From an uncultured Verrucomicrobiae bacterium (GTDB lineage Bacteria > Verrucomicrobiota > Verrucomicrobiia > Chthoniobacterales > JAATET01), in contig CAVXHK010000001.1 in assembly GCA_963761705.1 (NCBI GenBank), positions 259,140 through 323,139 of the forward strand: 64,000 nucleotides of DNA, written 5' to 3'. How positions within the stretch are numbered: the first letter of the stretch is position 1; each line of letters begins with the position of its first letter. A model generated the notes under the pieces. The model had not been told where the DNA came from. It saw nothing but the letters and a program-made list of their open reading frames with translations, and searched no databases. The position numbers and the translations under genes are program-made. This document shows, in pieces, positions 2,591 through 64,000 of this stretch.

Positions 2591-3778
2591 ATGTCAGCGG
2601 TATTAGCACTTGAGGACGGACGGGTTTTTCGAGGAGACGCGTTCGGCGCGAAGACCACGACCGTCGGGGAGATCTGCTTCAACACGGCGATGACCGGCTA
2701 CCAGGAGATCCTCACCGATCCATCCTACCGTGGCCAGATCGTCGCCATGACCGCCCCGCAGATCGGCAACTACGGGTCCAACGACCTCGACGTCGAGAGC
2801 GACGCCCCGCACGTCCGCGGCTTCGTGATCGAAGAACTCAGCCGCATCCCGAGCAACTGGCGCTCGCAGCTGAGCCTCGAAGACTTCCTGGAAAAAAATG
2901 GCATCCCGGGCATCGAATCCATCGACACCCGTGCCCTCACGCGCCACCTGCGGACCCGCGGCGCGATGCGAGCCTGCGTGTCGACCGAGGACCTCTCCGA
3001 CGACGCAGCGGTTGAGCGCGCCCGCGCGGCGAACTACTCCGCCGTCGATTTCGTCGCCGAAGTCACCCCCGCCGCACCCTACGAATGGGACGCAGCCGGC
3101 GAGCGCAGCCGGACCTGGGTGCAGGCAAAAGAAGTCGCCGCCAGCACGGGCGACGCCGACGCGATGGGCAACGTCTTCCAACCCGCCGTCCCCATCGAGC
3201 GCCACATCGTCGCCTACGATTTCGGGATGAAAAAAAACATCCTCCGACTCCTGCGAGCGGCCGGTTTCGGCGTCCAGGTGGTCCCCGCCCGCACCAGCGC
3301 CGCGGACGTTCTCGCGATGAAGCCCGACGGCGTTTTTCTGTCGAACGGCCCCGGCGATCCCGGCGTCCTCGACTACGCTCACGAGACCGCCCGCGAACTT
3401 ATCGGCAAGATCCCCATCTTCGGCATCTGCCTTGGCCACCAGGTTCTCGCCTACGCGTTTGGCGGCAAGACGTTCAAGCTCAAGTTCGGCCACCGCGGCG
3501 CAAACCAACCCGTGAAAGACCTCCGCACGGGTCGCATCGCCATCACCTCGCAGAACCACGGCTACGCGATCGACCCCGATTCACTTCCCGACAACGTCGA
3601 GGTCACTCACATCAATCTCAACGACAACACCGTCGCCGGCATCGCGCACAAAACCCACCCGGTCTTTAGCGTGCAGCACCATCCCGAGGCCTCTCCCGGC
3701 CCCCGCGACGCCGCGTATTTCTTTGACCAGTTCGCGAAAACTGTCGATGAATACCGCTCGATCTCCAAGCCCTCCTGA
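2591..3778 (+). CDS. carA: Carbamoyl-phosphate synthase small (glutamine amidotransferase) subunit
   Basis: MSAVLALEDGRVFRG...NTAMTGYQEILTDPSYRGQIV and GATase region PIFGICLGHQ...VQHHPE. I chose ATG 2591 rather than the upstream in-frame start at 2423, whose extension is Arg/Pro-rich. Confidence 0.93.
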   Translation: MSAVLALEDGRVFRGDAFGAKTTTVGEICFNTAMTGYQEILTDPSYRGQIVAMTAPQIGNYGSNDLDVESDAPHVRGFVIEELSRIPSNWRSQLSLEDFLEKNGIPGIESIDTRALTRHLRTRGAMRACVSTEDLSDDAAVERARAANYSAVDFVAEVTPAAPYEWDAAGERSRTWVQAKEVAASTGDADAMGNVFQPAVPIERHIVAYDFGMKKNILRLLRAAGFGVQVVPARTSAADVLAMKPDGVFLSNGPGDPGVLDYAHETARELIGKIPIFGICLGHQVLAYAFGGKTFKLKFGHRGANQPVKDLRTGRIAITSQNHGYAIDPDSLPDNVEVTHINLNDNTVAGIAHKTHPVFSVQHHPEASPGPRDAAYFFDQFAKTVDEYRSISKPS

Positions 3779-7392: not shown

Positions 7393-8705
7393 TGTTTTGG
7401 ATCACCGTCGAAACCGGCGTCCGCGAGATTTTCTCGCATAAATTCCGGAGCTTCCTCTCGATGCTCGGCATCGTCCTTGGGGTCAGCAGCCTCATCGCAA
7501 CCCTGGCGCTCACGGACGGCATCGAGCGCAGCTCGCGCGAGTTCATGGCGAACATGGGCGGCATCGAGATGGTGAAGATCGTCGACAAGGACATCTCCGA
7601 CGAGAACCTCGATTTCTGGAATTTGTCACCCGGTCGCACCCTCCAGGACGCGGAAGCCATCCGCCGCTCAGCCCCACTCGTGTCCTACGTCTCGCCCGAG
7701 TTCGACGACGGCATGCCGGTCTCCGTCGGCGGGAACCGCATGCGAACGCGCGTGCGTGGTGTCTGGCCGGAATACGTCGAAGCCACCGACACGCAGCTCG
7801 CAGTCGGGCGCACGATCTCCGACCTCGACGTCGAGCGAGCGACCCGCACGGTCGCCATCGGAGCCTCGGTCGCCGCCCAGCTGTGGCCCTACCTCTCGCC
7901 CGAACAAACGCTCGGGAAACAAATTTTTCTCCAACAGACGCCATTCGAAGTGATCGGCGTCTTCCAGCTTTACCAGCGCGAAAGCGACAAGGAGGAGGAC
8001 AAGGATCAGAAAGCTCGGCGGGAAGCCCGCGGGGCCGGGAGGTCGGGGTGGGATCCCTTCCGCTGGAAGAACGAAGCCGTCGTCATCCCGATCACGACCA
8101 TGTTTCACGAATTTCAGTCCGGACTCTTTCCGGAGGATTCGATCGACACGGTGCGCATCCGCGACCTCACGTTTCGCGTGAGCGACTTAGAAAATTTCGA
8201 CGCGACCCTCGATCAGGTGCGCGCCGCCTTGAACAAAACCCACCGCGGCGTCGACGACTTCGGCTTCGATACGCGCGAGGATTGGTTCGACAACATGAAC
8301 GCCCAGATCGCCGCCACCCGCACGAGCGGTGGCCTCATCGCCGGCATCAGCCTGCTCGTCGGCGGCATCGGCATCGCGAACATCATGCTCGCCAGCATTT
8401 CCGAGCGCGTACGCGAGATCGGCATCCGCCGCGCGGTCGGCGCGCGCGGACGCGACATTTTTCTCCAGATCATCATCGAAAGCGTTTCGACCGCCCTCAT
8501 GGGCGGCGTCCTCGGCGTCTTCGTTGGCTTCGGCCTCATCGAGCTCATCGGCTACGTCGCCCCGAGCGACAGCCCGCCCATCGTTCAAGCCAGCAGCATC
8601 GTCCTCAGCGTCGCCTTCGCGGCCGTCGCCGGCGTCCTCTCCGGCATCTACCCCGCCATGCAAGCCTCGCGCCTCGATCCCATTCAGGCCCTCCGGTACG
8701 AGTAA
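7389..8705 (+). CDS. ABC transporter permease (MacB_PCD + FtsX domains)
   Basis: [34 protein letters not shown] at the N-terminus and FtsX-like C-terminus GISLLVGGIGIANIMLASISERVREIGIRRAVGA. ATG 7389 overlaps the upstream stop (ATGA). Confidence 0.88.
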   Translation: MMFWITVETGVREIFSHKFRSFLSMLGIVLGVSSLIATLALTDGIERSSREFMANMGGIEMVKIVDKDISDENLDFWNLSPGRTLQDAEAIRRSAPLVSYVSPEFDDGMPVSVGGNRMRTRVRGVWPEYVEATDTQLAVGRTISDLDVERATRTVAIGASVAAQLWPYLSPEQTLGKQIFLQQTPFEVIGVFQLYQRESDKEEDKDQKARREARGAGRSGWDPFRWKNEAVVIPITTMFHEFQSGLFPEDSIDTVRIRDLTFRVSDLENFDATLDQVRAALNKTHRGVDDFGFDTREDWFDNMNAQIAATRTSGGLIAGISLLVGGIGIANIMLASISERVREIGIRRAVGARGRDIFLQIIIESVSTALMGGVLGVFVGFGLIELIGYVAPSDSPPIVQASSIVLSVAFAAVAGVLSGIYPAMQASRLDPIQALRYE

Positions 8706-24970: not shown

Positions 24971-25044
24971 GCCGCAAAAAAGGCGCAAAGGGCGCAAAAG
25001 AATTTATTCTCATCGCTTTTGCGCCTCCCGCACCTCTTCGCGGC
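24971..25044. repeat. Gene-less hairpin of the GCGCCTCT-GCGG inverted-repeat family (purine-rich arm, 15-nt loop, pyrimidine-rich arm)
   Basis: GCCGCAAAAAAGGCGCAAAGGGCGCAAAAG, loop aatttattctcatcg, then CTTTTGCGCCTCCCGCACCTCTTCGCGGC. This is an imperfect inverted repeat related to the arms at 42385..42414 and 42797..42826. Confidence 0.7.
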
Positions 25045-40732: not shown

Positions 40733-41344
40733 ATGCCGGAAAACATCCACACCGAATTCCACCGCTTCCTCACCCCCGCCGACAAGGAGCGCCTGCTCGG
40801 TCAGCGAGGCGGCGTCTTCTGGATGGTCGGCCTTTCTGGTTCCGGCAAATCCACCATCGCCAACGCCGCCGAGCGCACCCTCCACGACGCCGGGCGCTTC
40901 ACCACCATCCTCGACGGGGACAACCTGCGAAGCGGGTTAAATTCCAACCTCGGCTTCACCGACGACGACCGCCGCGAGAACATCCGGCGCACCGCCGAGG
41001 TCGCCCGGCTCTTCGCCAGCTCGGGCGTCATCACCTTGGTCTCCCTCATCACCCCCCGCGAGGCCTTCCGCGCGATGGCCCGCGAGATCGTCGGCCCCGC
41101 TTACCAAGAGATCTACGTCCGCGCCTCGTTCGAATCCTGCGCCGCCCGCGACCCCAAGGGCCTCTACCAGAAAGCCGCCACCGGAGCCGTCGCCAACTTC
41201 ACGGGCAAAGACAGCAGCTTCGAAGCGCCGGAAAATCCCGACCTCCTGCTCGATACCGAGAGCGACACCGCCGAATCGTGCGCCAAGCGGCTGATCGACT
41301 TTGTCGAGTCGAAGGTGATGGGGTCCAAAGTCGGAAAGTCTTAA
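40733..41344 (+). CDS. cysC: Adenylyl-sulfate (APS) kinase
   Basis: GGVFWMVGLSGSGKSTIANAAERTL...LDGDNLRSGLNSNLGFTDDDRRENIRR...RDPKGLYQKA. The last codons (SKVGKS) are encoded by 8-mer repeat units. Confidence 0.92.
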   Translation: MPENIHTEFHRFLTPADKERLLGQRGGVFWMVGLSGSGKSTIANAAERTLHDAGRFTTILDGDNLRSGLNSNLGFTDDDRRENIRRTAEVARLFASSGVITLVSLITPREAFRAMAREIVGPAYQEIYVRASFESCAARDPKGLYQKAATGAVANFTGKDSSFEAPENPDLLLDTESDTAESCAKRLIDFVESKVMGSKVGKS

Positions 41345-41365
41345 GGTCGGAAAGTCCGGGAACCC

Positions 41366-41413
41366 GCGCCAAAGGCAATCACCTTTTGGCGCCCTTTGCG
41401 CCTCTTTGCGGCC
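41366..41413. repeat. Gene-less hairpin / pyrimidine-rich arm of the same inverted-repeat family
   Basis: GCGCCAAAGG, caatca, then CCTTTTGGCGCCCTTTGCGCCTCTTTGCGGCC. The last 20 nt match the arm at 42805..42824. Confidence 0.6.
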
Positions 41414-41480
41414 AATCCTCACCGCCATTTCGACCTTTGACATTCGTCCTTCCGACTTTCAGACTCACCCGCTTTTTCCG

Positions 41481-42387
41481 ATGCCCGACTACAATCTAAG
41501 CCATCTCGATCAACTCGAGGCCGAGGCCATTTTCATCCTCCGCGAGACCGCCGCGCAGTTCCGCAAGCCGGCCCTCCTCTTTTCCGGCGGCAAGGATTCC
41601 ATCCTCATGGCGCACCTCGCGCACAAGGCGTTCTGGCCGTCGAAACTTCCGTTCCCGCTCGTCCACGTCGACACGGGACACAATTTCGACGAGACGATGA
41701 CTTACCGCGACGCTTACGTTGAAAAGCTCGGCGCCGAGCTCGTCGTCGGCTCCGTCCAACGGTCCATCGACGAGGGCCGCGTCGTCGAAGAGAAGGGCAT
41801 CAACGCCTCTCGCAACAAACTCCAGACCGTCACCCTCCTCGACACCATCGAGGCCAACCAATACGACGCCTGCCTCGGCGGCGGTCGCCGCGACGAAGAA
41901 AAGGCCCGCGCGAAAGAACGCTTCTTTTCCCACCGTGACGAGTTCGGTCAGTGGGATCCGAAGAACCAACGTCCCGAGCTTCTGGAATCTCTTCAACGGG
42001 CGCAAGAGCGAGGGCGAGCACTTCCGCGTCTTCCCGCTGTCGAACTTCACCGAAATGGACGTCTGGCTCTACATCCAGCGCGAGAAGATCGACCTCCCGT
42101 CGCTCTACTTCTCCCACGAGCGCGAAGTCTTCGTTCGCAACGGCACGATGCTGGCCGTCACCGATTTCCTCAAGCCGCAGGACAACGAACTCGTCGAGCG
42201 CAAGGTCGTGCGGTTTCGCACCATCGGCGACGCCACCTGCACGGGCGCGGTCGAATCCCGCGCCTCGACCCTCGACGACATCATCGAAGAAGTTGCCGCC
42301 TCCCGGCAGACCGAACGCGGCACCCGCTCCGACGACAAACGCTCCGAGACCTCGATGGAAGATCGGAAGAGGGAAGGTTATTTTTAG
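41481..42387 (+). pseudogene. cysD: Sulfate adenylyltransferase subunit 2, interrupted by an apparent +1 frameshift
   Basis: Frame A reads MPDYNLSHLDQLEAEAIFILRE...LLFSGGKDS...HRDEFGQWDPKNQRPEL up to 41981. Frame B, from TGG 41983, reads WNLFNGRKSEGEHFRVFPLSNFTEMDVWLYIQ...DRKREGYF, ending at 42387. The two parts total about 301 aa, the normal CysD length. The extra base lies within GAG CTT C TGG (41976..41985). Confidence 0.75.
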
Positions 42388-42826
42388 CCGCAAAGAGGCG
42401 CAAAAGGCTCAAAAAATGACCGATAAGGAGGTGTTCGCTCTTTGTGACAAGGTTCGCGAGACTTCGTTCTCGTTGCATCGCTTTTTACGTTTTGGACATC
42501 TGGAGAAAGTCTACGAGCGGGGAATGAAAAACCGCCTCAAGAAATCCGGTATCCAAGCCGCGTCGCAGTATGCCATCCCAGTCCGTGATGAAGACGGCAC
42601 GCTTTTGGGAGATTTTTTCGCAGACTTATTCGTTGAGGAGATGCTGCTAGTTGAAATCAAGGCAGCCCGCAGTCTCGCAGCCGAGCACACCGCCCAGATC
42701 CTCGGCTACCTCAGAGCCACTGGCATCGAGCATGGTCTCTTGATCAACTTTGGAGCGCCCAAGTTGGAAATAAAGAAATTCGCCCTATCAAAACCCTTTT
42801 GAGCTTTTTGCGCCTCTTTGCGGCTA
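42385..42826 (+). mobile_element. Inverted-repeat-flanked GxxExxY gene cassette inserted between cysD and cysN
   Basis: The left arm 42385..42414 is TAGCCGCAAAGAGGCGCAAAAGGCTCAAAA. The reverse complement of the right arm 42797..42826 is TAGCCGCAAAGAGGCGCAAAAAGCTCAAAA, a 29/30 match counted by hand. The left arm begins with the cysD stop codon. The right arm ends 7 nt before the cysN ATG. Confidence 0.7.
42416..42802 (+). CDS. GxxExxY family protein (PD-(D/E)XK nuclease-like fold)
   Basis: 128 aa with GHLEKVYE (GxxExxY), ADLFVEEMLLVEIK (D...ExK) and C-terminal GLLINFG. Confidence 0.8.
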   Translation: MTDKEVFALCDKVRETSFSLHRFLRFGHLEKVYERGMKNRLKKSGIQAASQYAIPVRDEDGTLLGDFFADLFVEEMLLVEIKAARSLAAEHTAQILGYLRATGIEHGLLINFGAPKLEIKKFALSKPF

Positions 42827-54370: not shown

Positions 54371-54558
54371 GTCGCAAGGTCCAAGGTCGAAGCGTCAGGT
54401 CAGAATCGCTGGTGCGATTGAAGCTGGGGAGCGCACGCGTCCCCGCGTGTGAGATGCGGCGTCCCGCCGCATCGCAGCAAGCACTTTGGTAGGGCAGGCC
54501 GTCCGCGCCCACCGCCATCCCTACGGCCCATCAAAAAAATCGCACCAGCGATTCAATC

Positions 54559-54667
54559 CCGACCACTCCGACCACTCCGACCACTCCGACCACTCCGACC
54601 ACTCCGACCACTCCGACCTTCCGACCTTCCGACCTTCCGACCTTCCGACCTTCCGACCTTCCGACCC
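54559..54667. repeat. Tandem array of 6x CCGACCACT (9 bp), then 6x CCGACCTT (8 bp) plus a partial unit, ending 11 nt before the exosortase ATG
   Basis: Counted by hand: 9-mers span 54559..54612, 8-mers span 54613..54660, and a partial CCGACCC follows. Confidence 0.9.
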
Positions 54668-54678
54668 GAGAACATCCC

Positions 54679-55599
54679 ATGCAACCCCCCGAAACCATGA
54701 CCCAACCAAAGAACCGCGCCCACACCGTCGCGTTTCCGGAGTGGGCACCCTTCGCGATCATCACGTTAATCTGGCTGCCGGCGCTGATGCGATTCAGCGT
54801 CGAGTGGTCGATCAATCCGCAGTATTACTACGGTTGGTCGGTTCCGCTGCTTTCGGCCTACCTGATCTACGATCGATGGTTGGCGCGGCCGACACCGGTC
54901 CCGCCCGAGCGGATACTGGTGCCGGCGATATTGATTATCCTGTGCGCCTTGCCGCAGTTGCCCCTGCGTCTGGTCGGCGAGGCGAACACGGATTGGCGGT
55001 TCGTTTCCTGGATCATGGGGCTGAACGCGTTGGCGATCGGCCTCGCGATCCTCTACATCCAAGGCGGTTGGCGGTGGCTGGGCTTCTTCGCTCTCCCAGT
55101 TCTTTTTCTGCTCACCGCCATCCCGTGGCCGTCCGGTGCCGAGAAGCTGCTGGTTCAGGGCCTGATGCGCGTCAACGCCGAGATCGCCGCCAACCTCGTC
55201 GGAATCGTCGGCATCCCGGCGGTCGCTCAGGGCAACGTGATCGAGGTGCCCACCGGGGTGTTGGGCGTCAACGAGGCCTGCAGCGGCATCCGGTCTCTTC
55301 AATCCACCCTCATGGCCGCCGCCTTCTTGGGATTGCTTTACCGACGGTCTTTGATCGGCCTCGGCTGCCTGATTTTCCTCGGTTCCCTCATCGCGTTCGT
55401 CTGCAACGTCATCCGCACAACGTTCCTCACCTACCAGGGAGCCACGAACGGCATCGAAGCCGTCGACAAGTGGCACGACTCAGCCGGATTCTTCATTCTC
55501 GGCGTCGTGCTCGTGTGTCTGTGGGGGATGAGCCAGTGGCTCGAGCGCTCGGAAAGGAAAGGATCTGAACGAAAGAGTGCTGAGGAAGCAAAGGTCTGA
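54679..55599 (+). CDS. Exosortase (Xrt family transpeptidase)
   Basis: Polytopic membrane protein with YYYGW near the N-terminus, the catalytic-Cys region VNEACSGIRSL, a later NVIRT, and His in DKWHDSAGF. Confidence 0.85.
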   Translation: MQPPETMTQPKNRAHTVAFPEWAPFAIITLIWLPALMRFSVEWSINPQYYYGWSVPLLSAYLIYDRWLARPTPVPPERILVPAILIILCALPQLPLRLVGEANTDWRFVSWIMGLNALAIGLAILYIQGGWRWLGFFALPVLFLLTAIPWPSGAEKLLVQGLMRVNAEIAANLVGIVGIPAVAQGNVIEVPTGVLGVNEACSGIRSLQSTLMAAAFLGLLYRRSLIGLGCLIFLGSLIAFVCNVIRTTFLTYQGATNGIEAVDKWHDSAGFFILGVVLVCLWGMSQWLERSERKGSERKSAEEAKV

Positions 55600-55712
55600 A
55601 GATGCATTGAAACCCACCCGGTGTGGCTGGAGTCTGGCTCGACCTGAATAGGATTCGTGTCATCCGGCGGACCGAAAGGGGGTGGCTTTCAATCCAATCG
55701 AAGCTAAATTGC

Positions 55713-56042
55713 ATGACAATGCTGCAACAACGCGACGAGCAGCGAAGGCAAACGCGCCTCGAGCTTTTCGACGAGACCCGGCGAACGCTTTTTGCCGAGC
55801 TTCGTGCCCGGCTCCCCCGCGGGACGGTGGTATGGATCTTTGGCTCGTTGGCTCGACGAGGAGTCTTCAACGCAGCTTCCGACGTCGACATCGCTCTGGA
55901 ATGTGAGCCAGCGGGGTCGAGTTGTTTTCGCCTGAGTTCCGAGTTGGACGAAGCTGTTGGCCGCCCCGTCGATGTGGTGCTGCTGAATGAAAGTCGGCTG
56001 GCCGCTCAGATCCAAAGCGCGGGAGAAAAATGGACGCTATAG
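55713..56042 (+). CDS. Nucleotidyltransferase (MNT-type antitoxin)
   Basis: VWIFGSLARRGVFNAASDVDIAL matches the GS-x-RG...DxD minimal nucleotidyltransferase motif. It overlaps the next gene by 13 nt. Confidence 0.75.
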   Translation: MTMLQQRDEQRRQTRLELFDETRRTLFAELRARLPRGTVVWIFGSLARRGVFNAASDVDIALECEPAGSSCFRLSSELDEAVGRPVDVVLLNESRLAAQIQSAGEKWTL

Positions 56043-56512
56043 GCTTGGCCACGCTGCATCGGGAAATGCAGGAGGATGTGCGCGTGATGCACGACGCGTT
56101 CGATCTTGCGACGGAGCGTTTTTCCCACGCTGGAGCGATGGGCTTGGAGTCGACGGCGCATCATTTATGCCGGTTCTACAACGCGTGCGAACAAATGGCT
56201 TTGCGAGTGGCGAAGGCATTCGAAAATCATATCGATGACGACCGAGGATGGCACACCGCTCTCCTCACGCGGATGAGCCTGGAGATCGGAGGGATTCGCC
56301 CGGCCCTGATCCCGTTGGATCTCAAACCCGATCTCCAAGAGTTGAAAGGGTTTCGACACGTTTTCGTTCATGCTTACGAGTTGCGGTTGGACGAAGAAAA
56401 GCTGCGATTGCTTATCCAATACGCCGGCCGGGTGAATGCGCGGTTGGATGAAATGATCAAAGTCTTCGCGGATCGTGCTTTCGAAGACGCAGATCCGGAT
56501 TCTACATCGTAG
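56030..56512 (+). CDS. HEPN-type (HepT-like) putative ribonuclease toxin
   Basis: Helical 160-aa protein with an R-x4-H motif in GFRHVFVHAY. Paired with the upstream MNT gene. Confidence 0.6.
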   Translation: MDAIGLATLHREMQEDVRVMHDAFDLATERFSHAGAMGLESTAHHLCRFYNACEQMALRVAKAFENHIDDDRGWHTALLTRMSLEIGGIRPALIPLDLKPDLQELKGFRHVFVHAYELRLDEEKLRLLIQYAGRVNARLDEMIKVFADRAFEDADPDSTS

Positions 56513-56674
56513 AAGTCGAGTGAACGGGTAGCTGGTAATACTAACGAGCAACCAGCAACTCACATCCGGGAAGCTCGCAGAGCTCCTCCCCAGCGCGGAT
56601 GAAATCATGAATTCCGCGATGTTCCTCGGGACAAACATCGCGACGATCAAGAGCGTCGTGAGGAGCTTTTGATT

Positions 56675-57413
56675 CTCGCGCAGAGGCGCAGAGGCGCAGA
56701 GATTGATACAAATGGCGATGGGTTTCACGCAAAGAGCGCTAAACCTACAGATCAGCTGTTTCCAAAAACAAAAACTCAATAACTATCACCTGTATCTCAG
56801 CCCTCAGCGCCTCCGCGCCTCTGCGGGAGAAAAGCATTCAATACAGGAACTCGCGCAACCGAAGGCTCGGGGGAGCCGAAGGTAGACGAAAAGCCCGAAG
56901 GGTGACCGAGCTGGGTTGCGAGGGAATCAAAGACGCAGAGGCGCAGAGATTGATACAAATGGCGATGGGTTTCACGCAAAGAGCGCTAAACCTACAGATC
57001 CGCTAATTCCAATAACTAGTAACTGTATCTCAGCCCTCCGCGTCTCTGCGCCTCTGCGGGCTAAAAGTATCAATACAGGGACTCGCGCAGAGACGCAGAG
57101 GCGCAGAGATTGATACAAATGCGGATCAGGAAGAGCTGAGAGAGAAGAACGGATGAAAGCCAAAAAAGCTAAATCTTAAAAAGAATCCCCTCCGCGTCTC
57201 TGCGCCTCTGCGGGCTAAAAGTATCAATACAGGGACTCGCGCAGAGGCGCAGAGATTCATACAAATGCGGATGAGAAAAGGCTGAAAGAGAAGAACAGGG
57301 GAAATTAAAGGAAGCTGAATCTTCTAAAGAATCCCCTCCGCGTCTCAGCGCCTCTGCGCGATTCATCGTATTATGCAACCAGAGGGTGAGGTTCGCGCGG
57401 AGGCGCGGGAAGA
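56675..57413. repeat. Mosaic palindromic-repeat zone 1 (hairpins plus B/C/D modules)
   Basis: An R arm lies at 56675..56701. Hairpins lie at 56801..56948 (with a D insert), 57034..57108 and 57187..57254, plus a degenerate one ending at 57413. Confidence 0.85.
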
Positions 57414-57469
57414 GTGTTAGTTGTTGGCTGGACGGTGGACATGACGAAACTACATGATATGTTTTTCGG

Positions 57470-57721
57470 ATGAGTGAATCGACATTGACCGAACGGGGAC
57501 AGGTATCCATCCCGGCGAAAATACGTAAATCCATGGGGTTGAAAGCTGGGCAACGGCTGCAATGGGAGCAGGTGTCCGCTCTGGAGTGCCGTATCTCCGC
57601 AATCGAGCCGCACGGTGACGGTCCACTTTCTGTATTGGGGTATGCCGCAAGGATTCGGGAGAATTCCGGACGTTCGACCGACGATTGGATGAAAGAGTTG
57701 CGAGCGGGCGAGATGCAATAG
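57470..57721 (+). CDS. AbrB/MazE/SpoVT-type antitoxin
   Basis: LTERGQVSIPAKIRKSMGLKAGQRLQWE is a swapped-hairpin DNA-binding motif. A PIN gene starts 4 nt downstream. Confidence 0.75.
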   Translation: MSESTLTERGQVSIPAKIRKSMGLKAGQRLQWEQVSALECRISAIEPHGDGPLSVLGYAARIRENSGRSTDDWMKELRAGEMQ

Positions 57722-57724
57722 CCC

Positions 57725-58147
57725 ATGTGGATTGTTGACACCTGCATTGTCCTCGATGTGTTCGAGGATGATCCCGAGTTTGGGAGAAAATCGGCGAACC
57801 TGCTTGAAAAACTATGTGGCGAAGGACTCTGCATCTGCCCCGTAACCATGGTCGAGCTGTCTCCAGCCTTTCAAGGCGATCTCTCGGAGCAGAAAAAATT
57901 CCTCTCGCTTGCCCGCATCTCGTTTTCCGCGAATTGGTCAGTTTTGGATACCGAAACGGCCCATCAGGCGTGGAGTGATTATGTCCACCTCCGCCGTCGC
58001 GAGGTCACACCAAGACGCCCGATCGCGGACATCCTGATCGGGGCATTCGCGTCAAATCGAAAAGGTTTGGTGACTCGGAACGCCAAAGACTTTCGACCTT
58101 GGTATCCCAAACTTGCCATCCAGGAGTCCGGCGCATCCTCCGGGTAG
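57725..58147 (+). CDS. PIN-domain toxin (VapC-like)
   Basis: MWIVDTCIVLDVF (first acidic residue), VTMVELS, IADILIGAFA, LVTRNAKDF. Confidence 0.8.
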   Translation: MWIVDTCIVLDVFEDDPEFGRKSANLLEKLCGEGLCICPVTMVELSPAFQGDLSEQKKFLSLARISFSANWSVLDTETAHQAWSDYVHLRRREVTPRRPIADILIGAFASNRKGLVTRNAKDFRPWYPKLAIQESGASSG

Positions 58148-58769
58148 CTAATAACCAGTAACCAATAACTGTATCTCAGCCCTCCGCGTCTCCGCGCCTC
58201 TGCGGGCTAAAAGTATCGATACAGGAACTCGCGCAGAGGCGCAGAGACGCAGAGATCGATACAAATGCGGATGATGAAGAGCTGAAAAGAAGAACGGATG
58301 ATATCCAAAGAAGCTAGATCTTAAAAAGAATCCCCTCCGCGCCTCTGCGCCTCTGCGGGCTAAAAGTATCAATACAGGAACTCGCGCAGAGGCGCAGAGA
58401 TTGATACAAATGCGGATGATGAAGAGTTGAAAAGAAGAACGGATGAAAATCAAAGAAGCTAAATCTTAAAAAGAATCCCCTCCGCGTCTCTGCGCCTCTG
58501 CGGGCTAAAAGTATCAATACAGGAACTCGCGCAACCGAAGGCTCGGGGGAGCCGAAGATAGACGAAAAGCCCGAAGGGTGACCGAGCTGGGTTGCGAGGG
58601 AATCAAAGACGCAGAGGCGCAGAGATTGATACAAATGAGGATGAGAAGGAGCTGAAACAGAAGAACGGATGAAATCCAAGGAAGCTAAATCTTAAAAAGA
58701 ATCCCCTCTGCGCCTCTGCGCCTCTGCGGGAGAAAAGTATCAATACAGGAACTCGCGCAGAGGCGCGAG
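58148..58769. repeat. Mosaic palindromic-repeat zone 2
   Basis: Includes the hairpin at 58332..58399, about four hairpin units in total, and D copy 58530..58596. Ends with a truncated R arm. Confidence 0.85.
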
Positions 58770-58832
58770 TCATTCCGAATCACGCAACTGATCCAAGTTG
58801 ACCGGGTTAAATGATCGCGTTACGATATCAAA

Positions 58833-59048
58833 ATGAAATCAATTCTCATCCGAAACGTCTCGCCCGAGACCGTTCAGCGGCTGAAGGCCAACGCCCGCGC
58901 TAATCATCGCTCGTTGCAAGGCGAGCTTCACGCATTGATTGAAGCGGGGATCGGCGTTCCCGACTCGTCGGAGCCCGAGTTCGAGCTGCGAACGGTGCGA
59001 ACCGATGGAACGCAGCGTTGGACCCGGGAAGAAATGTATGCGGATTGA
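58833..59048 (+). CDS. Ribbon-helix-helix (Arc/FitA-like) antitoxin
   Basis: MKSILIRNVSPETVQRLKANARANHRSLQGELHALIEAG is the typical RHH plasmid-stability N-terminus. It overlaps the downstream PIN gene by 11 nt. Confidence 0.7.
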   Translation: MKSILIRNVSPETVQRLKANARANHRSLQGELHALIEAGIGVPDSSEPEFELRTVRTDGTQRWTREEMYAD

Positions 59049-59511
59049 GCCGGGATCTCGGGTGAGTCTCGACACCAATGTCCTGCTAGACGCAACTGAC
59101 GAGGGTCGCGCTCGACACGGCGTTGCCATGCGACTCTTGGTCGAATCCCAGAGCCGTGGAATCGGCCTCTTCGTCGCAGCGCAAGTGATCCGCGAATATC
59201 TCGTAGTCGCCACCCGACCTCTTACGGCGAACGGTCTCGATCTTTCCATTGACGATGCGCTTTTCAACGTCCGGCAGTTGACGCGCCAAACCACCCTCCT
59301 CTGGGAGACCGTCGGGGCCTCCCAACTCTTTCTCGACTGGGCCCGGGAGCTTGGCGTTACGGGCACGAAACTTCACGACCTCCAGATCCTTGCCACGACT
59401 CACAGCGCTGGCATCCCGTGCCTCGTGACCTCGAACATCGACGATTTTCCGTCCAGAGTCGGCCCGCTCGTCTTCCCTCTCGGCGAATTGGACTGGGGGA
59501 ATGGGGACTAA
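59038..59511 (+). CDS. PIN-domain toxin (VapC-like)
   Basis: VSLDTNVLLDATDEG, AAQVIREYLVVATR, HDLQILATTHSAGIPCLVTSNIDDF. Start taken at MRIEPG. Confidence 0.75.
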   Translation: MRIEPGSRVSLDTNVLLDATDEGRARHGVAMRLLVESQSRGIGLFVAAQVIREYLVVATRPLTANGLDLSIDDALFNVRQLTRQTTLLWETVGASQLFLDWARELGVTGTKLHDLQILATTHSAGIPCLVTSNIDDFPSRVGPLVFPLGELDWGNGD

Positions 59512-59629
59512 GGATCCATTAGGTTCAGTCGGGTCAGGGCCCGTGCCCGTCTCCCGCCTCGAGGACAGGTTTCAACAATTACCCCGACGAGTCCTTGGCC
59601 CGTCAGTTCGATCCTGCCGTTTTCTAATT

Positions 59630-60263
59630 CCTCTCTGCGTCTCAACGCCTCTGCGGGAAAAAAGTATCGATACAGGAACTCGCGCAACCGAAGGCTCGGG
59701 GGAGCCGAAGATAGACGAAAAGCCCGAAGGGTGACCGAGCTGGGTTGCGAGGGAATCAAAGGCGCAGAGGCGCAGAGAATGAAGATGCTGGTGGGTTTCA
59801 CCCAAAGAGCGCTAAACCTACAGATCAGCTAATTCCAATAACTATCAACTGTATCTCAGGCCTCCGCGCCTCCGCGCCTCCGCGGGCTAAAAGTATCAAT
59901 ACAGGGACTCGCGCTGAGACGCAGAGGCGCAGAGAATGAAGATGGCTATGGGTTTCACGCGGTTCCTGCACGAAGAGCTACTGATTAGATATTTCCAACA
60001 ACAAAAACTCAATAACTATCAACTGTATCTCAGCCCTCCGCGTCTCTGCGCCTCCGCGGGAGAAAAGTATCGATACAGGGACTCGCGCAGAGGCGCAGAG
60101 GCGCAGAGAATGAAGATGGCGATGGGTTTCACGCAAAGAGCGCTAAATTTACAGATCAGCTAATTCCAATAATTAGTAACTGTATCTCAGCCCTCCGCGC
60201 CTCTGCGCCTCTGCGGGAGAAAAGTATCAGTATCAATCCAGGAACTCGCGCAGAGACGCAGAG
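59630..60263. repeat. Mosaic palindromic-repeat zone 3
   Basis: Four hairpin units, three C modules, and D copy 59683..59749. Confidence 0.85.
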
Positions 60264-60285
60264 AGTGGTGAAGGGTCCTTGAAAA

Positions 60286-60669
60286 ATGACGGAGAATGAG
60301 ATCGGAACGAAGGTTCTGGAGGTATCGATTGAAATCCACAGGGAGCTGGGTCCCGGGCTGCTTGAAACGGTTTACGAAGTGGTTCTGGCAAAGGAACTGT
60401 CTTTACGTGGCCTGATTGTGCAGCGCCAGGTGCCGGTGCCAATCCTGTGTCGCGGAACTCGGTTTGATGAAGGTTTTCGCGCTGATCTGATTATTAACCG
60501 GACCGTCCTTCTGGAACTCAAATCTGTCGAAAAGGTAATCCCTGCCCACAAGAAGCAAGTGCAGACCTACCTGCGACTCACTGGTATCAAGCTGGGTTAT
60601 CTTTTGAACTTTGGTGAGTCTGTTCTGAAAAGTGGGATCACTCGCTGCGTCAATGGCCTCGAATCATGA
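60286..60669 (+). CDS. GxxExxY family protein (PD-(D/E)XK nuclease-like fold)
   Basis: GLLETVYE, RADLIINRTVLLELK, GYLLNFG. An R arm ends 22 nt upstream and an L arm starts 3 nt after the stop. Confidence 0.8.
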   Translation: MTENEIGTKVLEVSIEIHRELGPGLLETVYEVVLAKELSLRGLIVQRQVPVPILCRGTRFDEGFRADLIINRTVLLELKSVEKVIPAHKKQVQTYLRLTGIKLGYLLNFGESVLKSGITRCVNGLES

Positions 60670-60672
60670 ATT

Positions 60673-61115
60673 CCCTCCGCGCCTCTGCGCCTCTGCGGGC
60701 TAAAAGTATCAATCCAGGAACTCGCGCAGAGGCGCAGAGATTGAAGATGCGATGGGTTTCAAGCGGCCCTCGAGCGAAGAGCGGCAGGTCTACAGATCAA
60801 CTGCTCCCAATACCCAATAACTATCACCTGGATCTCAGCCCTCAGCGCCTCCGCGCCTCTGCGGGCTAAAAGCATTCAATACAGAAACTCGCGCAACCGA
60901 AGGCTCGGGGGAGCCGAAGATAGACGAAAAGCCCGAAGGGTGACCGAGCTGGGTTGCGAGGGAATCAAAGACGCAGAGACGCAGAGATTCATACAAATGC
61001 GGATGAGAAAAGGCTGAAAGAGAAGAACAGGGGAAATTAAAGGAAGCTGAATTTTGTAAAGAATCCCCTCAGCGTCTCAGCGCCTCTGCGGGAGAAAAGT
61101 ATCAATACAGGGACT
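60673..61115. repeat. Mosaic palindromic-repeat zone 4
   Basis: Hairpin at 60673..60739, a C module, a hairpin with D copy 60892..60958, a B module, and a final L arm plus linker. Confidence 0.85.
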
Positions 61116-61160
61116 CGTTTAAGAATCGCGCAAGGTAGAGTCTTGCGCTAACATCCAGCA

Positions 61161-61478
61161 ATGACAACGATAGATATAGCCGCGAAGATCGCCCACCGAC
61201 TGATTGGCGGGCTGCCGGCTGAGCAAGTCTGGCTGTTTGGCTCGCAAGCCAGGGGCGATGCCTCGCCTGATAGTGATTTGGATATTCTCGCGGTCGTTGG
61301 CGAAGCAAAGCCGTCCCGGATACGGCAGACCGTTGAGGCCTATTCCCTCGTGGCAGACATCCATGCTCCCAAAGACATCATCATTCTGACTCGCGACCAG
61401 TGGACGCGACAGAAAGGCGTCGTAAACACGATTCCCTACCTTGCTCTCAAAGAGGGCATCCCGCTCCACGAGGGGTGA
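61161..61478 (+). CDS. Nucleotidyltransferase (MNT-type antitoxin)
   Basis: VWLFGSQARGDASPDSDLDILAV is the GSxxRG...DxD motif. Confidence 0.8.
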   Translation: MTTIDIAAKIAHRLIGGLPAEQVWLFGSQARGDASPDSDLDILAVVGEAKPSRIRQTVEAYSLVADIHAPKDIIILTRDQWTRQKGVVNTIPYLALKEGIPLHEG

Positions 61479-61484
61479 CTCAGG

Positions 61485-61913
61485 ATGACCCAAGAATACT
61501 TGCAAGTGGTTGAAGCTTGGTTGGCGAAGGCCGGGTCGGATCTTGCATCAGCCAAATTGTTGATCGAAAACGACGATCCGCATCTCGATACCGGCAGTTA
61601 CCATTGCCAGCAAGCCGCAGAAAAGGTCCTCAAAGGCTGGCTGACTGCTAACAAAGTCGAATTTCGCAAAACCCACGACATCTCTGAGCTTCTCGGCCAA
61701 TGCATTCAAATCGAGGTCAGCTTCCGAGCGTTCGAAGATGCCGGACGTTTCCTCCTGCCATTCGCCACCCAATTCCGCTATCCCGGAGACGTCTTCGAAC
61801 CGTCGCGGGATGAGGCTTTGGAAGCGTTCGAGTCAGCAGCCTCGATTGACTCCTTCGCTCCCGCTCATCTCGCCCTGCGGGCTACGCCGCAGAGCCGCCG
61901 TAGTCTGCCCTGA
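61485..61913 (+). CDS. HEPN domain protein (toxin partner of MNT)
   Basis: AWLAKAGSDLASAKLL...YHCQQAAEKVLKGWL...FRKTHDISELL...QFRYPG is a classical HEPN layout. It starts 6 nt after the MNT gene. Confidence 0.78.
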   Translation: MTQEYLQVVEAWLAKAGSDLASAKLLIENDDPHLDTGSYHCQQAAEKVLKGWLTANKVEFRKTHDISELLGQCIQIEVSFRAFEDAGRFLLPFATQFRYPGDVFEPSRDEALEAFESAASIDSFAPAHLALRATPQSRRSLP

Positions 61914-62035
61914 GGCGTCCCACGCCTCCGGTGCTCTCGACGCGGTTTGGTTTGACTTGAATGCGAAATTTCCGGGCCAGCTTGAATAAGGAAGCCCTTT
62001 GGACCCGCCTCGAATTTTAGACAGCTGACCGTTGC

Positions 62036-63081
62036 CCTCCGAGCCTCTGCGGGAAAAACACATCAATACAGGAACTTGCGCAACCGAAGGCTCGGGGGAG
62101 CCGAAGATAGACGAAAAGCCCGAAGGGTGACCGAGCTGGGTTGCTAGGGAATCAAAGGCGCAGAGACGCAGAGAATGATATAAATGCGGATGAGGAAGAG
62201 CTGAAAAGAAAGAACGGATAAGATCCAAGGAATCTAATCTTCAAAAGGATTCCCTCCGCGCCTCCGCACCTCTGCGGGCTAAAAGTATCGATACAGGAAC
62301 TCGCGCAGAGGCGCAGAGGCGCAGAGATTGATACAAATGCGGATCAGGAAGAGCTGAGAGAGAAGAACGGATGAAAGCCAAAGAAGCCAAATCTTCAAAA
62401 AAATCCCCTCCGCGCCTCTGCGCCTCTGCGGGCTAAAAGTATCAATACAGGGACTCGCGCAGAGGCGCAGAGGCGCAGAGATTGATACAAATGCGGATCA
62501 GGAAGAGCTGAGAGAGAAGAACGGATGAAAGCCAAAGAAGCCAAATCTTCAAAAAAATCCCCTCCGCGCCTCTGCGCCTCCGCGGGATAAAGTATCAATA
62601 CAGGAACTCGCGCAGAGACGCAGAGGCGCAGGAAGCTCGAGAAGGGAATTCGTAATACCAATACAGGGACTCGCGCAACCGAAGGCTCGGGGGAGCCGAA
62701 GATAGACGAAAAGCCCGAAGGGTGACCGAGCTGGGTTGCGAGGGAATCAAAGGCGCAGAGGCGCAGAGAATGAAGATGGCGGCGGATTCATCACGCAAAG
62801 AGCGCTAAACCTACAGATTAGCTGCTTCTAATAACTAATAACAAATAACTATCAACTGTATCTCATTCCCTCCGCGCCTCTGCGCCTCTGCGGGATAAAG
62901 TATCAATACAGGAACTCGCGCAACCGAAGGCTCGGGGAAGCCGAAGATAGACGAAAAGCCCGAAGGGTGACCGAGCTGGGTTGCGAGGGAATCAAAGGCG
63001 CAAAGGCGCAGAGAAGGAAAACCCGCTACCCAGTACCCGTATCTCATCGCCATTCCCTCTGCGCCTCCGCGCCTCTGCGGG
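62036..63081. repeat. Mosaic palindromic-repeat zone 5 (longest)
   Basis: About seven hairpin units and three D copies (62079..62145, 62674..62740, 62919..62985). Ends with a lone L arm at 63055..63081. Confidence 0.85.
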
Positions 63082-63240
63082 ATAATCACTCAGAACCTCA
63101 GAACGCACCTCCCCTCCCATGAAAAAAACAGTAATCATCGTTGCCTCCCGCTCGCCCGAGCGTGTCGCCCTACGGGCTGTCGCTCCACTCCAGGCTACCC
63201 CGACCGTCCCCATCGGTCCGGTGTTCTCTTCCACAAAAGC

Positions 63241-63930
63241 ATGAAAAAGTCACTTATCGTTCTTTTTTCCTCCGTCATCGGTTGGTTCGTCGTGTCCGAG
63301 GCGGCCACCGAGGCTTGGTACCGTTGGCACGAGATGCGGGCCGAGACGTCGGCGGAGTGGCAGGTCACCTGGCCGGACGAACCGGAATCGGATTGGGCCG
63401 TGCAGGATTTCACAGAGTTTCCAACCTCCGATCAAGTGCAGGAAGTTCTGCGCTACGACGAAATGCGCGGTGCCCGCTGGGTTGATCCCGCGTCCCGGGT
63501 CGCGTGGAACGTCAACTTCATCGAATGGGAGCCGGATAAGGATCTCAACGGCATCAATGCCGTTCACAACCCCACGATTTGTCTGCCGAGCGCTGGGATG
63601 CAGCTCGTCGAGACCCTGGGAGAACGGACTCTTGAGGTCGGTGGCCAGACGATCTCCTTCCAATGCTTCATCTTCGAGACCCAGGGTCGCCAACTCTACG
63701 TCTTCTCCGCTGCGAATCAGGAACTGAAATTGAAACCTGCAGACATGGAAGGTGCCGACTTCGGGCGAGCGAATCGCCTGGATACCGTGAATTCCGCCAA
63801 CCGCCAGGGTCCGCGCCAGGTCATGCACATCTACCTCATGGGGCCGCGCAGCTTCGACGAGGCGCTCGCGGAGCTGAAATCCGGACTCCAGAAGCTCGTG
63901 GAGGCGCAGCCCGCCCGGAAGAGCGCGTAG
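63241..63930 (+). CDS. EpsI family exosortase-associated protein
   Basis: N-terminal TM segment SLIVLFSSVIGWFVV and the hallmark segment AVHNPTICLPSAGMQLVE, followed by QLYVFS. 229 aa. Confidence 0.75.
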   Translation: MKKSLIVLFSSVIGWFVVSEAATEAWYRWHEMRAETSAEWQVTWPDEPESDWAVQDFTEFPTSDQVQEVLRYDEMRGARWVDPASRVAWNVNFIEWEPDKDLNGINAVHNPTICLPSAGMQLVETLGERTLEVGGQTISFQCFIFETQGRQLYVFSAANQELKLKPADMEGADFGRANRLDTVNSANRQGPRQVMHIYLMGPRSFDEALAELKSGLQKLVEAQPARKSA

Positions 63931-64000
63931 CGAGTGAAGGGTAGCGGGTCGCGCGTGGCGAGTGGGCGGTGGTTTCAGTGGGTGACAATAGGCGCAGAGG

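Follow-up and report, generated by a model that had tools for sequence, protein, structure and literature searches.

The stretch of DNA analysed here, 64,000 nucleotides from the genome of an uncultured Verrucomicrobiae bacterium (hereafter the window), contains a 6.4-kb chain of about 21 cassette units at positions 56678-63080, all on the + strand and in a single orientation. In the canonical unit, a payload lies between an upstream arm, R, and a downstream arm, L, which are inverted copies of the same repeated octamer, and successive units are joined by a linker, K, with or without a further module, D. We read this region as a hot spot on the chromosome where hairpin-bounded cassettes of an undescribed family have formed an array, an interpretation that we hold at slightly better than an even chance. 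By its defining features, the array is not an integron, not a system of repetitive extragenic palindromes and bacterial interspersed mosaic elements (REP/BIME), and not a group of miniature inverted-repeat transposable elements (MITEs). It is best described as a set of hairpin-bounded cassettes resembling the intervening sequences (IVS) of 23S rRNA, with BIME-like array growth and tied to the GxxExxY family of nucleases. An initial annotation of the region had described the repeats and missed the ties to GxxExxY genes and to 23S rRNA IVS.

Architecture of the array

A search for the arm pattern CTCTGCGCCTCTGCGGG, allowing up to three mismatches, returned 55 matches against 0.48 expected, every one of them within 56677-63081, and the linker returned 17 matches against 0 expected, all on the + strand at 57063-62916. 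A formal parse gave an ordered unit (L, a 7-nt spacer, K, either a single C or CGCG plus D, R, and payload) repeated about 21 times, indicating that the modular grammar of R arm, payload and L arm with a conserved linker, as initially annotated, is real. The arms are built from the 8-base word GCGCAGAG, which is direct in the upstream arm and present as its complement in the downstream arm. The R arm has two or three GCGCAGAG octamers (16 or 24 nt), and the L arm is 24 nt long, with three octamers of the form CTCYGCGY. The spacer between L and K is GCTAAAA or a variant of it, the linker core K is GTATCRATACAGGRACT, and K is joined to R by the single C or by CGCG plus the 77-nt module D. The seven copies of D had been overlooked in the initial inventory, which was otherwise sound in listing L, linker, R and the payload modules B and C.

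The payloads of the array consist of nine copies of module B (~80 nt) and seven of module C (84-101 nt), the numbers originally counted, together with one 43-nt stub and four gene cassettes encoding MazE/PIN, FitA/PIN, GxxExxY, and MNT/HEPN, so that the array does carry protein-coding payloads as had been claimed. A canonical K-R sequence was present on the 5' side of the GxxExxY cassette only; in the other three gene cassettes, the R arm is degenerate, partial, or missing. The GC content of the array is 0.53-0.57, compared to ~0.64 in the remaining window.

Copies of B are 68-100% identical to each other and copies of C 72-93%, a divergence clearly greater than that of the arms, K, or D. A profile search matched the 5' two-thirds of C to the leader ahead of an S23p gene in a cassette of a related genome (L002) and the 3' third of C to the trailer that closes MazE/PIN cassettes. 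Given these two matches, B and C are best read as gene-less leader-plus-trailer cassettes, either deletion derivatives or empty vehicles. The bases adjoining the arms (GGGAGAA or GGGCTAA after L, ACTCG before R) recur at the solitary units described below and are read as part of the arms.

Solitary units at empty and filled sites

The initial annotation had placed the same arms at two sites outside the array, 42385-42826 and 24971-25044. These sites were found to use a sister octamer (GCGCAAAG/GCGCAAAA), and their arms failed to match those of the array when 2 mismatches were allowed in 16 or 3 in 17. The first site holds a solitary unit (42388-42823, + strand) composed of an R arm (CCGCAAAGAGGCGCAAAAGG), a GxxExxY gene (42416-42802), and an L arm, with the arms giving an RNA duplex of ~29 bp (-54.7 kcal/mol). 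The insertion directly follows the stop codon of cysD and is in turn followed by the native spacer that leads to the start codon of cysN. In one relative (L005), whose CysN is 92% identical, the spacer is empty and only 12 nt long, and in two relatives at 87% identity (L008 and L009), the site is filled with a homologous unit. A second comparison came from a solitary unit with GCGCAGAG arms in L044, where the spacer between a CoA-transferase gene and an aminotransferase gene is 511 nt, compared to 24 nt in L048, the flanks being 93.7% and 97.2% identical. Both are very short spacers within operons. Neither the cysD|cysN junctions nor that of L044/L048 revealed a target-site duplication, and a candidate TA duplication at cysD|cysN, which fits the window and not L008, was rejected. 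These two independent comparisons of empty and filled sites show that R-payload-L behaves as an insertion unit without target duplication, in agreement with the unit originally proposed.

Presence and absence of this kind could also be produced by non-autonomous elements with terminal inverted repeats, nested at a preferred target and moved by a DDE transposase in trans. Mobile insertion cassettes, such as MIC231 of Bacillus cereus, and bacterial MITEs have terminal inverted repeats around passenger genes and are moved in trans in this way. The array units share with them the inverted ends around non-transposase passengers and the short gene-less derivatives (here B and C) beside gene-bearing versions, and an insertion sequence (IS) with a DDE_Tnp_1/DUF772 transposase of 459 amino acids does lie inside a related array (L002:1350-2726). 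That IS is a single insertion, however, and gave no sign of arm-like ends, though these were not inspected in detail. The lack of a target-site duplication at either empty/filled pair, the use of variable-number tandem octamers in place of a unique terminal sequence, and the fixed linker between units, which nesting leaves unexplained, make elements of this type an unlikely source of the array.

At the cysD|cysN junction of another genome (L007:9881-10000), we observed a 119-nt payload-less hairpin whose arms are tandem GAAATNN repeats with no sequence relationship to the arms of the window. Since this is the junction that holds the solitary unit of the window, it is, by this comparison, a hot spot for hairpin elements of different families that share arms of tandem short repeats. 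At 24971-25044 (+ strand), between convergent genes, arms of the sister (CAAAG) type enclose no payload and form a solitary hairpin whose loop is 15 nt (fold z = -2.8). A relic hairpin or L arm of the CAAAG type is located just upstream of cysD, at 41361-41415 on the + strand (a junction read as cysC|cysD).

Related arrays and cassette turnover

Among 185,579 species representatives, the linker-R junction was found in three other genomes only, all of them metagenome-assembled genomes (MAGs) of uncultured Verrucomicrobiae from one Danish sample series. In the Joint Genome Institute (JGI) metagenome collection, the K-R junction gave no new array, all 34 matches being chance 19-mers, which shows K to be rare. 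About 25 of these 34 (L010-L043) are one recurrent marine sequence (...AATCAATCAATACAGGAACTCGCGCACGAACTCGGCGAAGACC...) unrelated to the array.

The three related MAGs have the same array grammar, D included, and in two of them (L001/L047 and L003), the array directly follows the exosortase gene epsH, as it follows the epsH side of the same operon in the window. L047 contains the complete orthologous locus, consisting of epsH, a 7.9-kb array, and an EpsI-like gene. The window and L047 share an ordered skeleton with different cassettes in between; the shared blocks are C-L-K-D-R-C, the MazE/PIN cassette (94% identical), and the GxxExxY cassette (91% identical). A further shared block is the terminal L arm of the window array with its right flank, which matches the end of the array in L047 without a difference. 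Compared to the L001/L047 cassettes of its type, the MazE/PIN cassette of the window is 90-94% identical. The payloads of the relatives include MNT/HepT, AbiEii-like nucleotidyltransferases, PIN, HicB, a 23S-rRNA-IVS (S23p) protein, and one epimerase gene.

L047 has two MazE/PIN copies (2705-3552 and 7845-8611), one of which is complete and 94% identical to that of the window. The other abuts epsH, ends prematurely in a K-like half-site, and lacks 1 nt of PIN; from this truncation and deletion, it is probably a pseudogene.

Third-codon identity of the shared cassettes is 0.88-0.90 for MazE/PIN and 0.96 for HepT, compared to 0.63-0.76 for the backbone genes (GDP-mannose dehydratase and EpsH). 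Together with the 92-100% identity of module D between genomes, this indicates a more recent common ancestry for the cassettes and their framework than for the chromosomes in which they reside. Tandem Repeats Finder identified three runs of recent duplication of an L-K-R-B unit of ~145-154 nt, and the breakpoints between orthologous arrays lie in arms or linkers. By these two kinds of evidence, the array evolves as cassettes are acquired and lost, as units are duplicated locally, and as parts of its repeated framework recombine with one another. The head-to-tail concatenation of units suggested initially is therefore correct in that the units are chained, and incomplete in that they are not merely independent insertions, three stretches of ~150-nt L-K-R-B having arisen by tandem duplication.

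The core of K is ~16 nt long and contains the near-palindrome GTATCRATAC; one L001 breakpoint falls within this core. K is confined to a narrow lineage, the window and the three MAGs of one sample series, while the arms occur in several phyla. Some linkers contain an internal duplication of 6 nt (GTATCAGTATCAAT) (window 60226-60246; L047:10421-10451; L004 and L003 junctions), pointing to slippage within K as well as within arms.

Comparison with integron cassette arrays

To our knowledge, chromosomal cassette arrays are known essentially from integrons. The array looks integron-like yet has no attC cores, its boundary being the inverted arms of a repeated octamer. With sedentary chromosomal integrons and clusters of attC sites lacking integrases (CALINs), it shares long single-orientation runs of small cassettes with similar hairpin-forming sites between them, an enrichment in toxin-antitoxin cassettes that appear to have their own promoters, an atypical GC content (here below that of the genome), and a content that differs among relatives at a fixed site. 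The array could accordingly be a CALIN in which the L-K-R hairpins or the D modules serve as attC sites and IntI is encoded elsewhere. The L-K-R junctions, at ~68 nt, are of attC-like size; D holds an AAC...GTT pair (GCGCAAC...GTTGCGA, 69 nt) and an inner second stem; each of the first four D-to-D intervals contains one gene cassette; and integrons occur in Verrucomicrobia, with CALINs being abundant (PMC4889954).

No integrase or transposase was present among the 20 predicted proteins scanned at 23-56 kb of the window, with tyrosine recombinases absent as well, and precomputed Pfam matches gave no integrase or tyrosine recombinase among the called genes between or beside epsH and epsI of L047. 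With no adjacent integrase found, CALIN status hinges on the attC sites themselves. The strict R''/R' pattern (RYYYAAC...GTTRRRY) gave 0 matches on either strand of 56600-63150. A relaxed AAC...GTT pattern (at least 6/7 complementary) was found in six of the seven D modules and in no L-K-R junction, but only 7 of ~20 junctions contain D at all, and in L004 the GTT is replaced by GTC in two copies. Many of the 'cassettes' are gene-less modules of 80-100 nt, and in the solitary units the gene has an inverted arm on either side, unlike a gene with one attC. We therefore regard a CALIN as improbable.

Module D itself is 77 nt long, occurs in seven copies, invariably between K and R, and is framed by a (G)CGCA repeat. 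Its predicted structure has an outer 7-bp stem, an internal loop, and an inner 6-bp stem. It was rejected both as a structured RNA and as an attC site, given a fold z of only -1.5, no compensatory changes, and a constant K-D-R context. An indel at an orthologous junction was rejected too, because the terminal units of the window and L047 carry different payloads, and thus the units are not strictly orthologous. On the - strand, each D (56856-56932 and six others) forms a weak terminator-like hairpin followed by a T-rich tail (AGCTCGGTCACCCTTCGGGCT TTTCGTCTAT), from which D might keep antisense transcripts out of the cassettes. Overall, terminator-like sites are no more numerous in the array than expected by chance.

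The GxxExxY nuclease and its arms

The payload of the GxxExxY cassette, a protein of ~127 amino acids, belongs to the commonest type of payload across bacteria. The protein encoded in the window array matched Pfam PDDEXK_3 (1e-37) and TIGR04256, and hidden Markov model (HMM) bit scores for the GxxExxY payload were 128.3 and 108 compared to a cut-off of 35 (TIGR04256 / PF13366 PDDEXK_3). E27, D67, E77, and K79 (E77-x-K79) are invariant in 36 GxxExxY sequences. The AlphaFold2 (AF2) model has a predicted local distance difference test (pLDDT) score of 92.7 and the fold of a minimal PD-(D/E)XK nuclease, the nearest solved structures being Cas4 and lambda-exonuclease-type enzymes, with weak scores. 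The invariant catalytic residues and the confidently modelled fold suggest that the nuclease is probably active.

The array protein has thousands of homologues at 75-96% identity, and peptides derived from the arms were found in 39 of 53 extended homologues. The N-terminal RRDAEAQS is the translation of CGCAGAGACGCAGAGGCGCAGAG, and the C-terminal PQRLCVSAG or PLRLCASAG is a translated L arm. Public gene calls (P0122-P0240) often run into the arms, giving spurious RRDAEAQS heads and PQRLCVSAGELPT tails, a systematic annotation artefact. Genome annotation is thus affected, with gene callers routinely translating the arms into RRDAEAQS heads and PQRLCVSAG tails.

R-gene-L units with array-type arms and the same outer motifs (ACTCG-R ... 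L-GGAGAA) were also found in three other genomes or contigs. L044, a Phycisphaerae-like genome, has an R-GxxExxY-L unit; L045, an unassigned contig, has such a unit plus a nested R-29 nt-L hairpin; and L046, a Sumerlaeaceae MAG, has one together with L-linker-R junctions that use a different linker of ~42 nt. GxxExxY genes are therefore flanked by arms of the GCGCAGAG type in contigs that belong to Verrucomicrobiota and Sumerlaeota or are Planctomycetota-like. The four GxxExxY proteins with GCGCAGAG (CAGAG) arms are 77-90% identical and the two with GCGCAAAG (CAAAG) arms 69% identical, compared to 32-41% between the arm groups. In these six cases, the sequences show arm type tracking GxxExxY clade.

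Folding and pairing of the arms

Both L-K-R and R-B-L fold far more stably than their shuffles (-21.9 to -28.4 kcal/mol, z -3.9 to -4.9), as expected from the initial description of the arms as hairpin-forming. The R/L duplexes around open reading frames (ORFs) are 16-30 bp long, and those in the array are 16-24 bp with few mismatches. Covariation between arms was not observed in either pairing mode: when partners were shuffled, pairing of an R arm with its own L was no better than with any other L (13.9/16 in both cases), and in the 12 distinct L-K-R arm pairs tabulated, the sole variable stem positions are uncompensated. The covariation check set out initially thus gave a negative result, and selection for any one hairpin has no evolutionary evidence behind it. 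The complementarity of R and L follows from both being copies of one octamer and speaks neither for nor against a folded state.

A double change in linker and payload start (GTATCAAT/ATTGATAC), which had been offered as a weak sign of pairing, is real at 58216/58255; the other three GTATCGAT linkers do not co-vary, and the change is therefore not evidence of pairing. The imperfections in the arm pairs of 56678-63080 are mostly A.C on the + strand (52, compared to 7 G.U). On the - strand, these would be G.T or G.U wobbles, which recalls bottom-strand attC folding. As a test of the strand of action, the wobble counts were rejected, the A.C excess having been traced to the many copies of one or two fixed differences in the consensus. 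Rfam gave nothing, or sub-threshold matches to miRNA-type hairpins, at gathering and permissive thresholds.

Single arms fold weakly (R -5.0 and L -3.2 kcal/mol, compared to -10.6 kcal/mol for a REP-like control), which bears on whether this is a true REP/BIME system made by a REP-associated tyrosine transposase (RAYT) of the HUH Y1 type. Such systems are likewise mosaics of alternating-orientation repeats with conserved linkers and tandem expansion (PMC2817692, PMC3333891), are intergenic in solitary, doublet, and clustered forms, and can have more than one sequence family per genome. RAYTs are moreover defined by a gene flanked by inverted repeats whose type tracks the protein clade (PMC2817692), as is seen here for GxxExxY. 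The resemblance to REP/BIME organisation noted initially is consequently sound for the alternating orientation, constant linkers, and tandem expansion, but it does not extend to the arms, which are not REPs because a single arm consists of tandem octamers and is not a self-folding palindrome. A GT(A/G)G head was not seen in the arm consensus when inspected by eye, no search having been made for it. The units here carry protein-coding cargo, and the flanked gene encodes a PD-(D/E)XK nuclease, with no Y1 transposase among the proteins scanned in the window and loci. RAYTs have been described from Proteobacteria only (PMC2817692), whereas the hosts here are Verrucomicrobiota, Planctomycetota, and Sumerlaeota. 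We consider a RAYT-made system very unlikely.

Another origin would need no dedicated mobility: a regulatory or terminator-type hairpin could have been amplified by slippage and unequal recombination, with genes trapped by ordinary rearrangement. The three recent runs of tandem duplication, the breakpoints in arms and linkers, and the lack of arm covariation are all consistent with this. It does not readily account for an identical arm type with near-identical flanking motifs in three phyla, around a nuclease gene that is 77-90% identical, nor for insertions into operon junctions that are unrelated to each other and cleanly empty in close relatives, nor for cassettes less diverged than the backbone. 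The hairpins of the array also lack a run of T on the coding strand, and there is no excess of terminator-like sites. Amplification without mobility is thus quite unlikely to be the origin of the array.

A proposed explanation and its relation to rRNA intervening sequences

In the hairpin-bounded cassette family that we propose, the basic unit is a payload between inverted arms, each having 2-3 tandem copies of one octamer. As the comparisons of empty and filled sites show, units insert into, and vanish from, very short intercistronic spacers of operons; toxin-antitoxin pairs and four-helix-bundle genes of the 23S-IVS type use the arms that GxxExxY uses. The epsH|epsI junction has accumulated many such units, joined by the lineage-specific K with or without D. 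R and L may pair into a 16-30-bp stem in the read-through transcript or in single-stranded DNA, looping the payload out, and, by analogy to 23S-rRNA intervening sequences, RNase III may cut this stem. The duplexes are long enough for RNase III (~29 bp at cysD|cysN, 16-24 bp in the array), by which they would be processed. A payload looped out and cut in this way would explain why insertions inside operons are tolerated. The GxxExxY nuclease is a candidate for a mobilising or homing enzyme that acts on the arms in trans, in a role that we liken to that of a RAYT with REP/BIME or of a free-standing homing endonuclease.

The closest likenesses are to REP/BIME-RAYT systems, compared above, and to the IVS of 23S rRNA in Coxiella, Leptospira, and others. 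The Coxiella IVS has been described as a selfish element, a stem-loop around an S23p ORF, whose 5' arm has 2-3 tandem heptamers that vary in number by strain, with RNase III cutting at the first repeat, and whose GC content is below that of the host (PMC4990558). The array units share with IVS the inverted-repeat ends and a stem that loops out a small ORF, the 2-3 tandem 7-8-nt repeats of variable number in the arm, a GC content lower than that of the host, horizontal acquisition, and residence inside highly constrained transcription units. An S23p-family gene is itself a payload in the L002 array, the window payloads belonging to other families. They differ from IVS in lying in intercistronic spacers of protein-coding operons, where they are piled up with a fixed linker, and in having mainly GxxExxY nucleases and toxin-antitoxin pairs as payloads. 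An Rfam scan found no rRNA in the window, and the units are therefore not in helix 25 or 45 of 23S rRNA, the location that defines an IVS.

Several observations weigh against this explanation. Both empty/filled pairs could be precise deletions and not insertions. The linker K and module D are left unexplained by a cassette model, and K is limited to the window and three MAGs. The higher identity of the cassettes may partly reflect gene conversion or other codon constraints and not transfer. The link between GxxExxY and arm type is a correlation from six loci, in which arms and gene could be merely co-inherited, and most cassettes of the array have no GxxExxY gene. Finally, with no partner-specific covariation or compensatory change in the arms, selection on the stem is unproven.

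The arms travel with the abundant, uncharacterised GxxExxY family across at least three phyla, and the literature on GxxExxY, PDDEXK_3, and hairpin-bounded cassettes yielded no description of such a system. We put forward as possible, though doubtful, the broader view that GxxExxY with octamer arms represents a selfish element of a new class: the gene of a nuclease, free-standing and of the homing or REP type, wrapped in a long inverted repeat that acts as an RNase III-excisable 'pseudo-intron' in operons and rRNA genes. The 23S rRNA IVS, the GxxExxY and S23p paralogue families, and toxin-antitoxin arrays would then be one system, and arrays would be a non-integron route to cassette platforms. 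If the link between arms and GxxExxY is functional, it would give the GxxExxY proteins a role, explain the origin of rRNA intervening sequences, and show how selfish genes occupy operons unbroken.

Units of the array and their surroundings

All units described below are on the + strand. In the parse, the array begins with an R arm of three octamers, a C payload (56702-56802), and L (unit 1, 56678-56826), followed by a K variant, D (56856-56932), R, a C payload (56949-57035), and L (unit 2, 56835-57059). Units 3-4 (57067-57359) are two copies of K-R-B-L, with B at 57109-57189 and 57255-57335, in a tandem duplication with a 146-nt period. The MazE/PIN cassette (57360-58205) encodes a MazE/AbrB antitoxin (57470-57721) and a PIN/VapC toxin (57725-58147); its linker is not of the K type, its R at ~57394-57412 is degenerate, and it has a C-type trailer and an L arm at 58182-58205.

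Units 6-8 (58213-58729) read K-R-B-L, K-R-B-L, and K-D-R-B-L (D at 58532-58608) and include a tandem duplication with a 145-nt period. The FitA/PIN cassette (58737-59656) has a FitA-like ribbon-helix-helix (RHH) antitoxin gene (58833-59048) and a PIN toxin gene (59038-59511), with K, a partial R at 58755-58770, and an L arm at 59633-59656. Sigma-70-like sites were found on the + strand of the array only at 57436-57463 and 58798-58826, directly upstream of the two VapBC-type operons, which suggests that the MazE/PIN and FitA/PIN cassettes carry their own promoters.

Units 10-12 (59664-60216) are K-D-R-C-L (D at 59685-59761) and two copies of K-R-C-L. The GxxExxY cassette (60230-60698) has a canonical K, R at 60248-60263, the PD-(D/E)XK nuclease gene at 60286-60669, and L at 60675-60698. 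Units 14-15 (60706-61091) are K-R-C-L and then K variant-D-R-B-L (D at 60894-60970). In the MNT/HEPN cassette (61099-62052), the genes for an MNT nucleotidyltransferase (61161-61478) and a HEPN protein (61485-61913) are preceded by K with no recognisable R arm and followed by a degenerate two-octamer L (62037-62052). PADLOC matched the MNT proteins alone to a candidate system. Units 17-19 (62060-62625) are K variant-D-R-B-L (D at 62081-62157), two copies of K-R-B-L, and then K-R, with a tandem duplication over the same span that has a 154-nt period and 3.1 copies that are 92% identical. Units 20-21 (62655-63080) are K variant-D-R-C-L (D at 62676-62752) and K-D-R followed by the 43-nt payload and L (D at 62921-62997).

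The array interrupts an exopolysaccharide/exosortase operon in the order GDP-mannose dehydratase, EpsH, an MNT/HepT pair, the array, and an EpsI-like gene. The left host flank is the exosortase gene epsH (54679-55599, + strand; Pfam Exosortase_EpsH, 4e-43), with conserved synteny in L001/L047 and L003. It is separated from the first R arm by a pair of genes (55623-56512, + strand) for MNT (55623-56042) and a HepT-like protein (56030-56512), absent from L047 and 98% identical in L002. The right host flank is the EpsI-like gene (63241-63930, + strand), which has a weak DUF3485 match and is 81% identical to the 230-amino-acid gene that ends the L047 array. The start of a further R arm (GGCGCAGAGG) is present in the last bases of the window (63990-64000, + strand), and more units therefore probably follow the EpsI-like gene.

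The spacer between the GDP-mannose dehydratase gene and epsH has a 26-nt inverted repeat (54394-54419 / 54538-54563) with 85% complementarity and 118 nt between its halves, which may be another hairpin element. Other short tandem repeats were present in intergenic spacers, GTCGGAAAGTC... at 41325-41365 of the window and GTCCAAGG/GTCTGAAG octamers 3' of epsH (L008:12925-12985), and may be the arms of another family.

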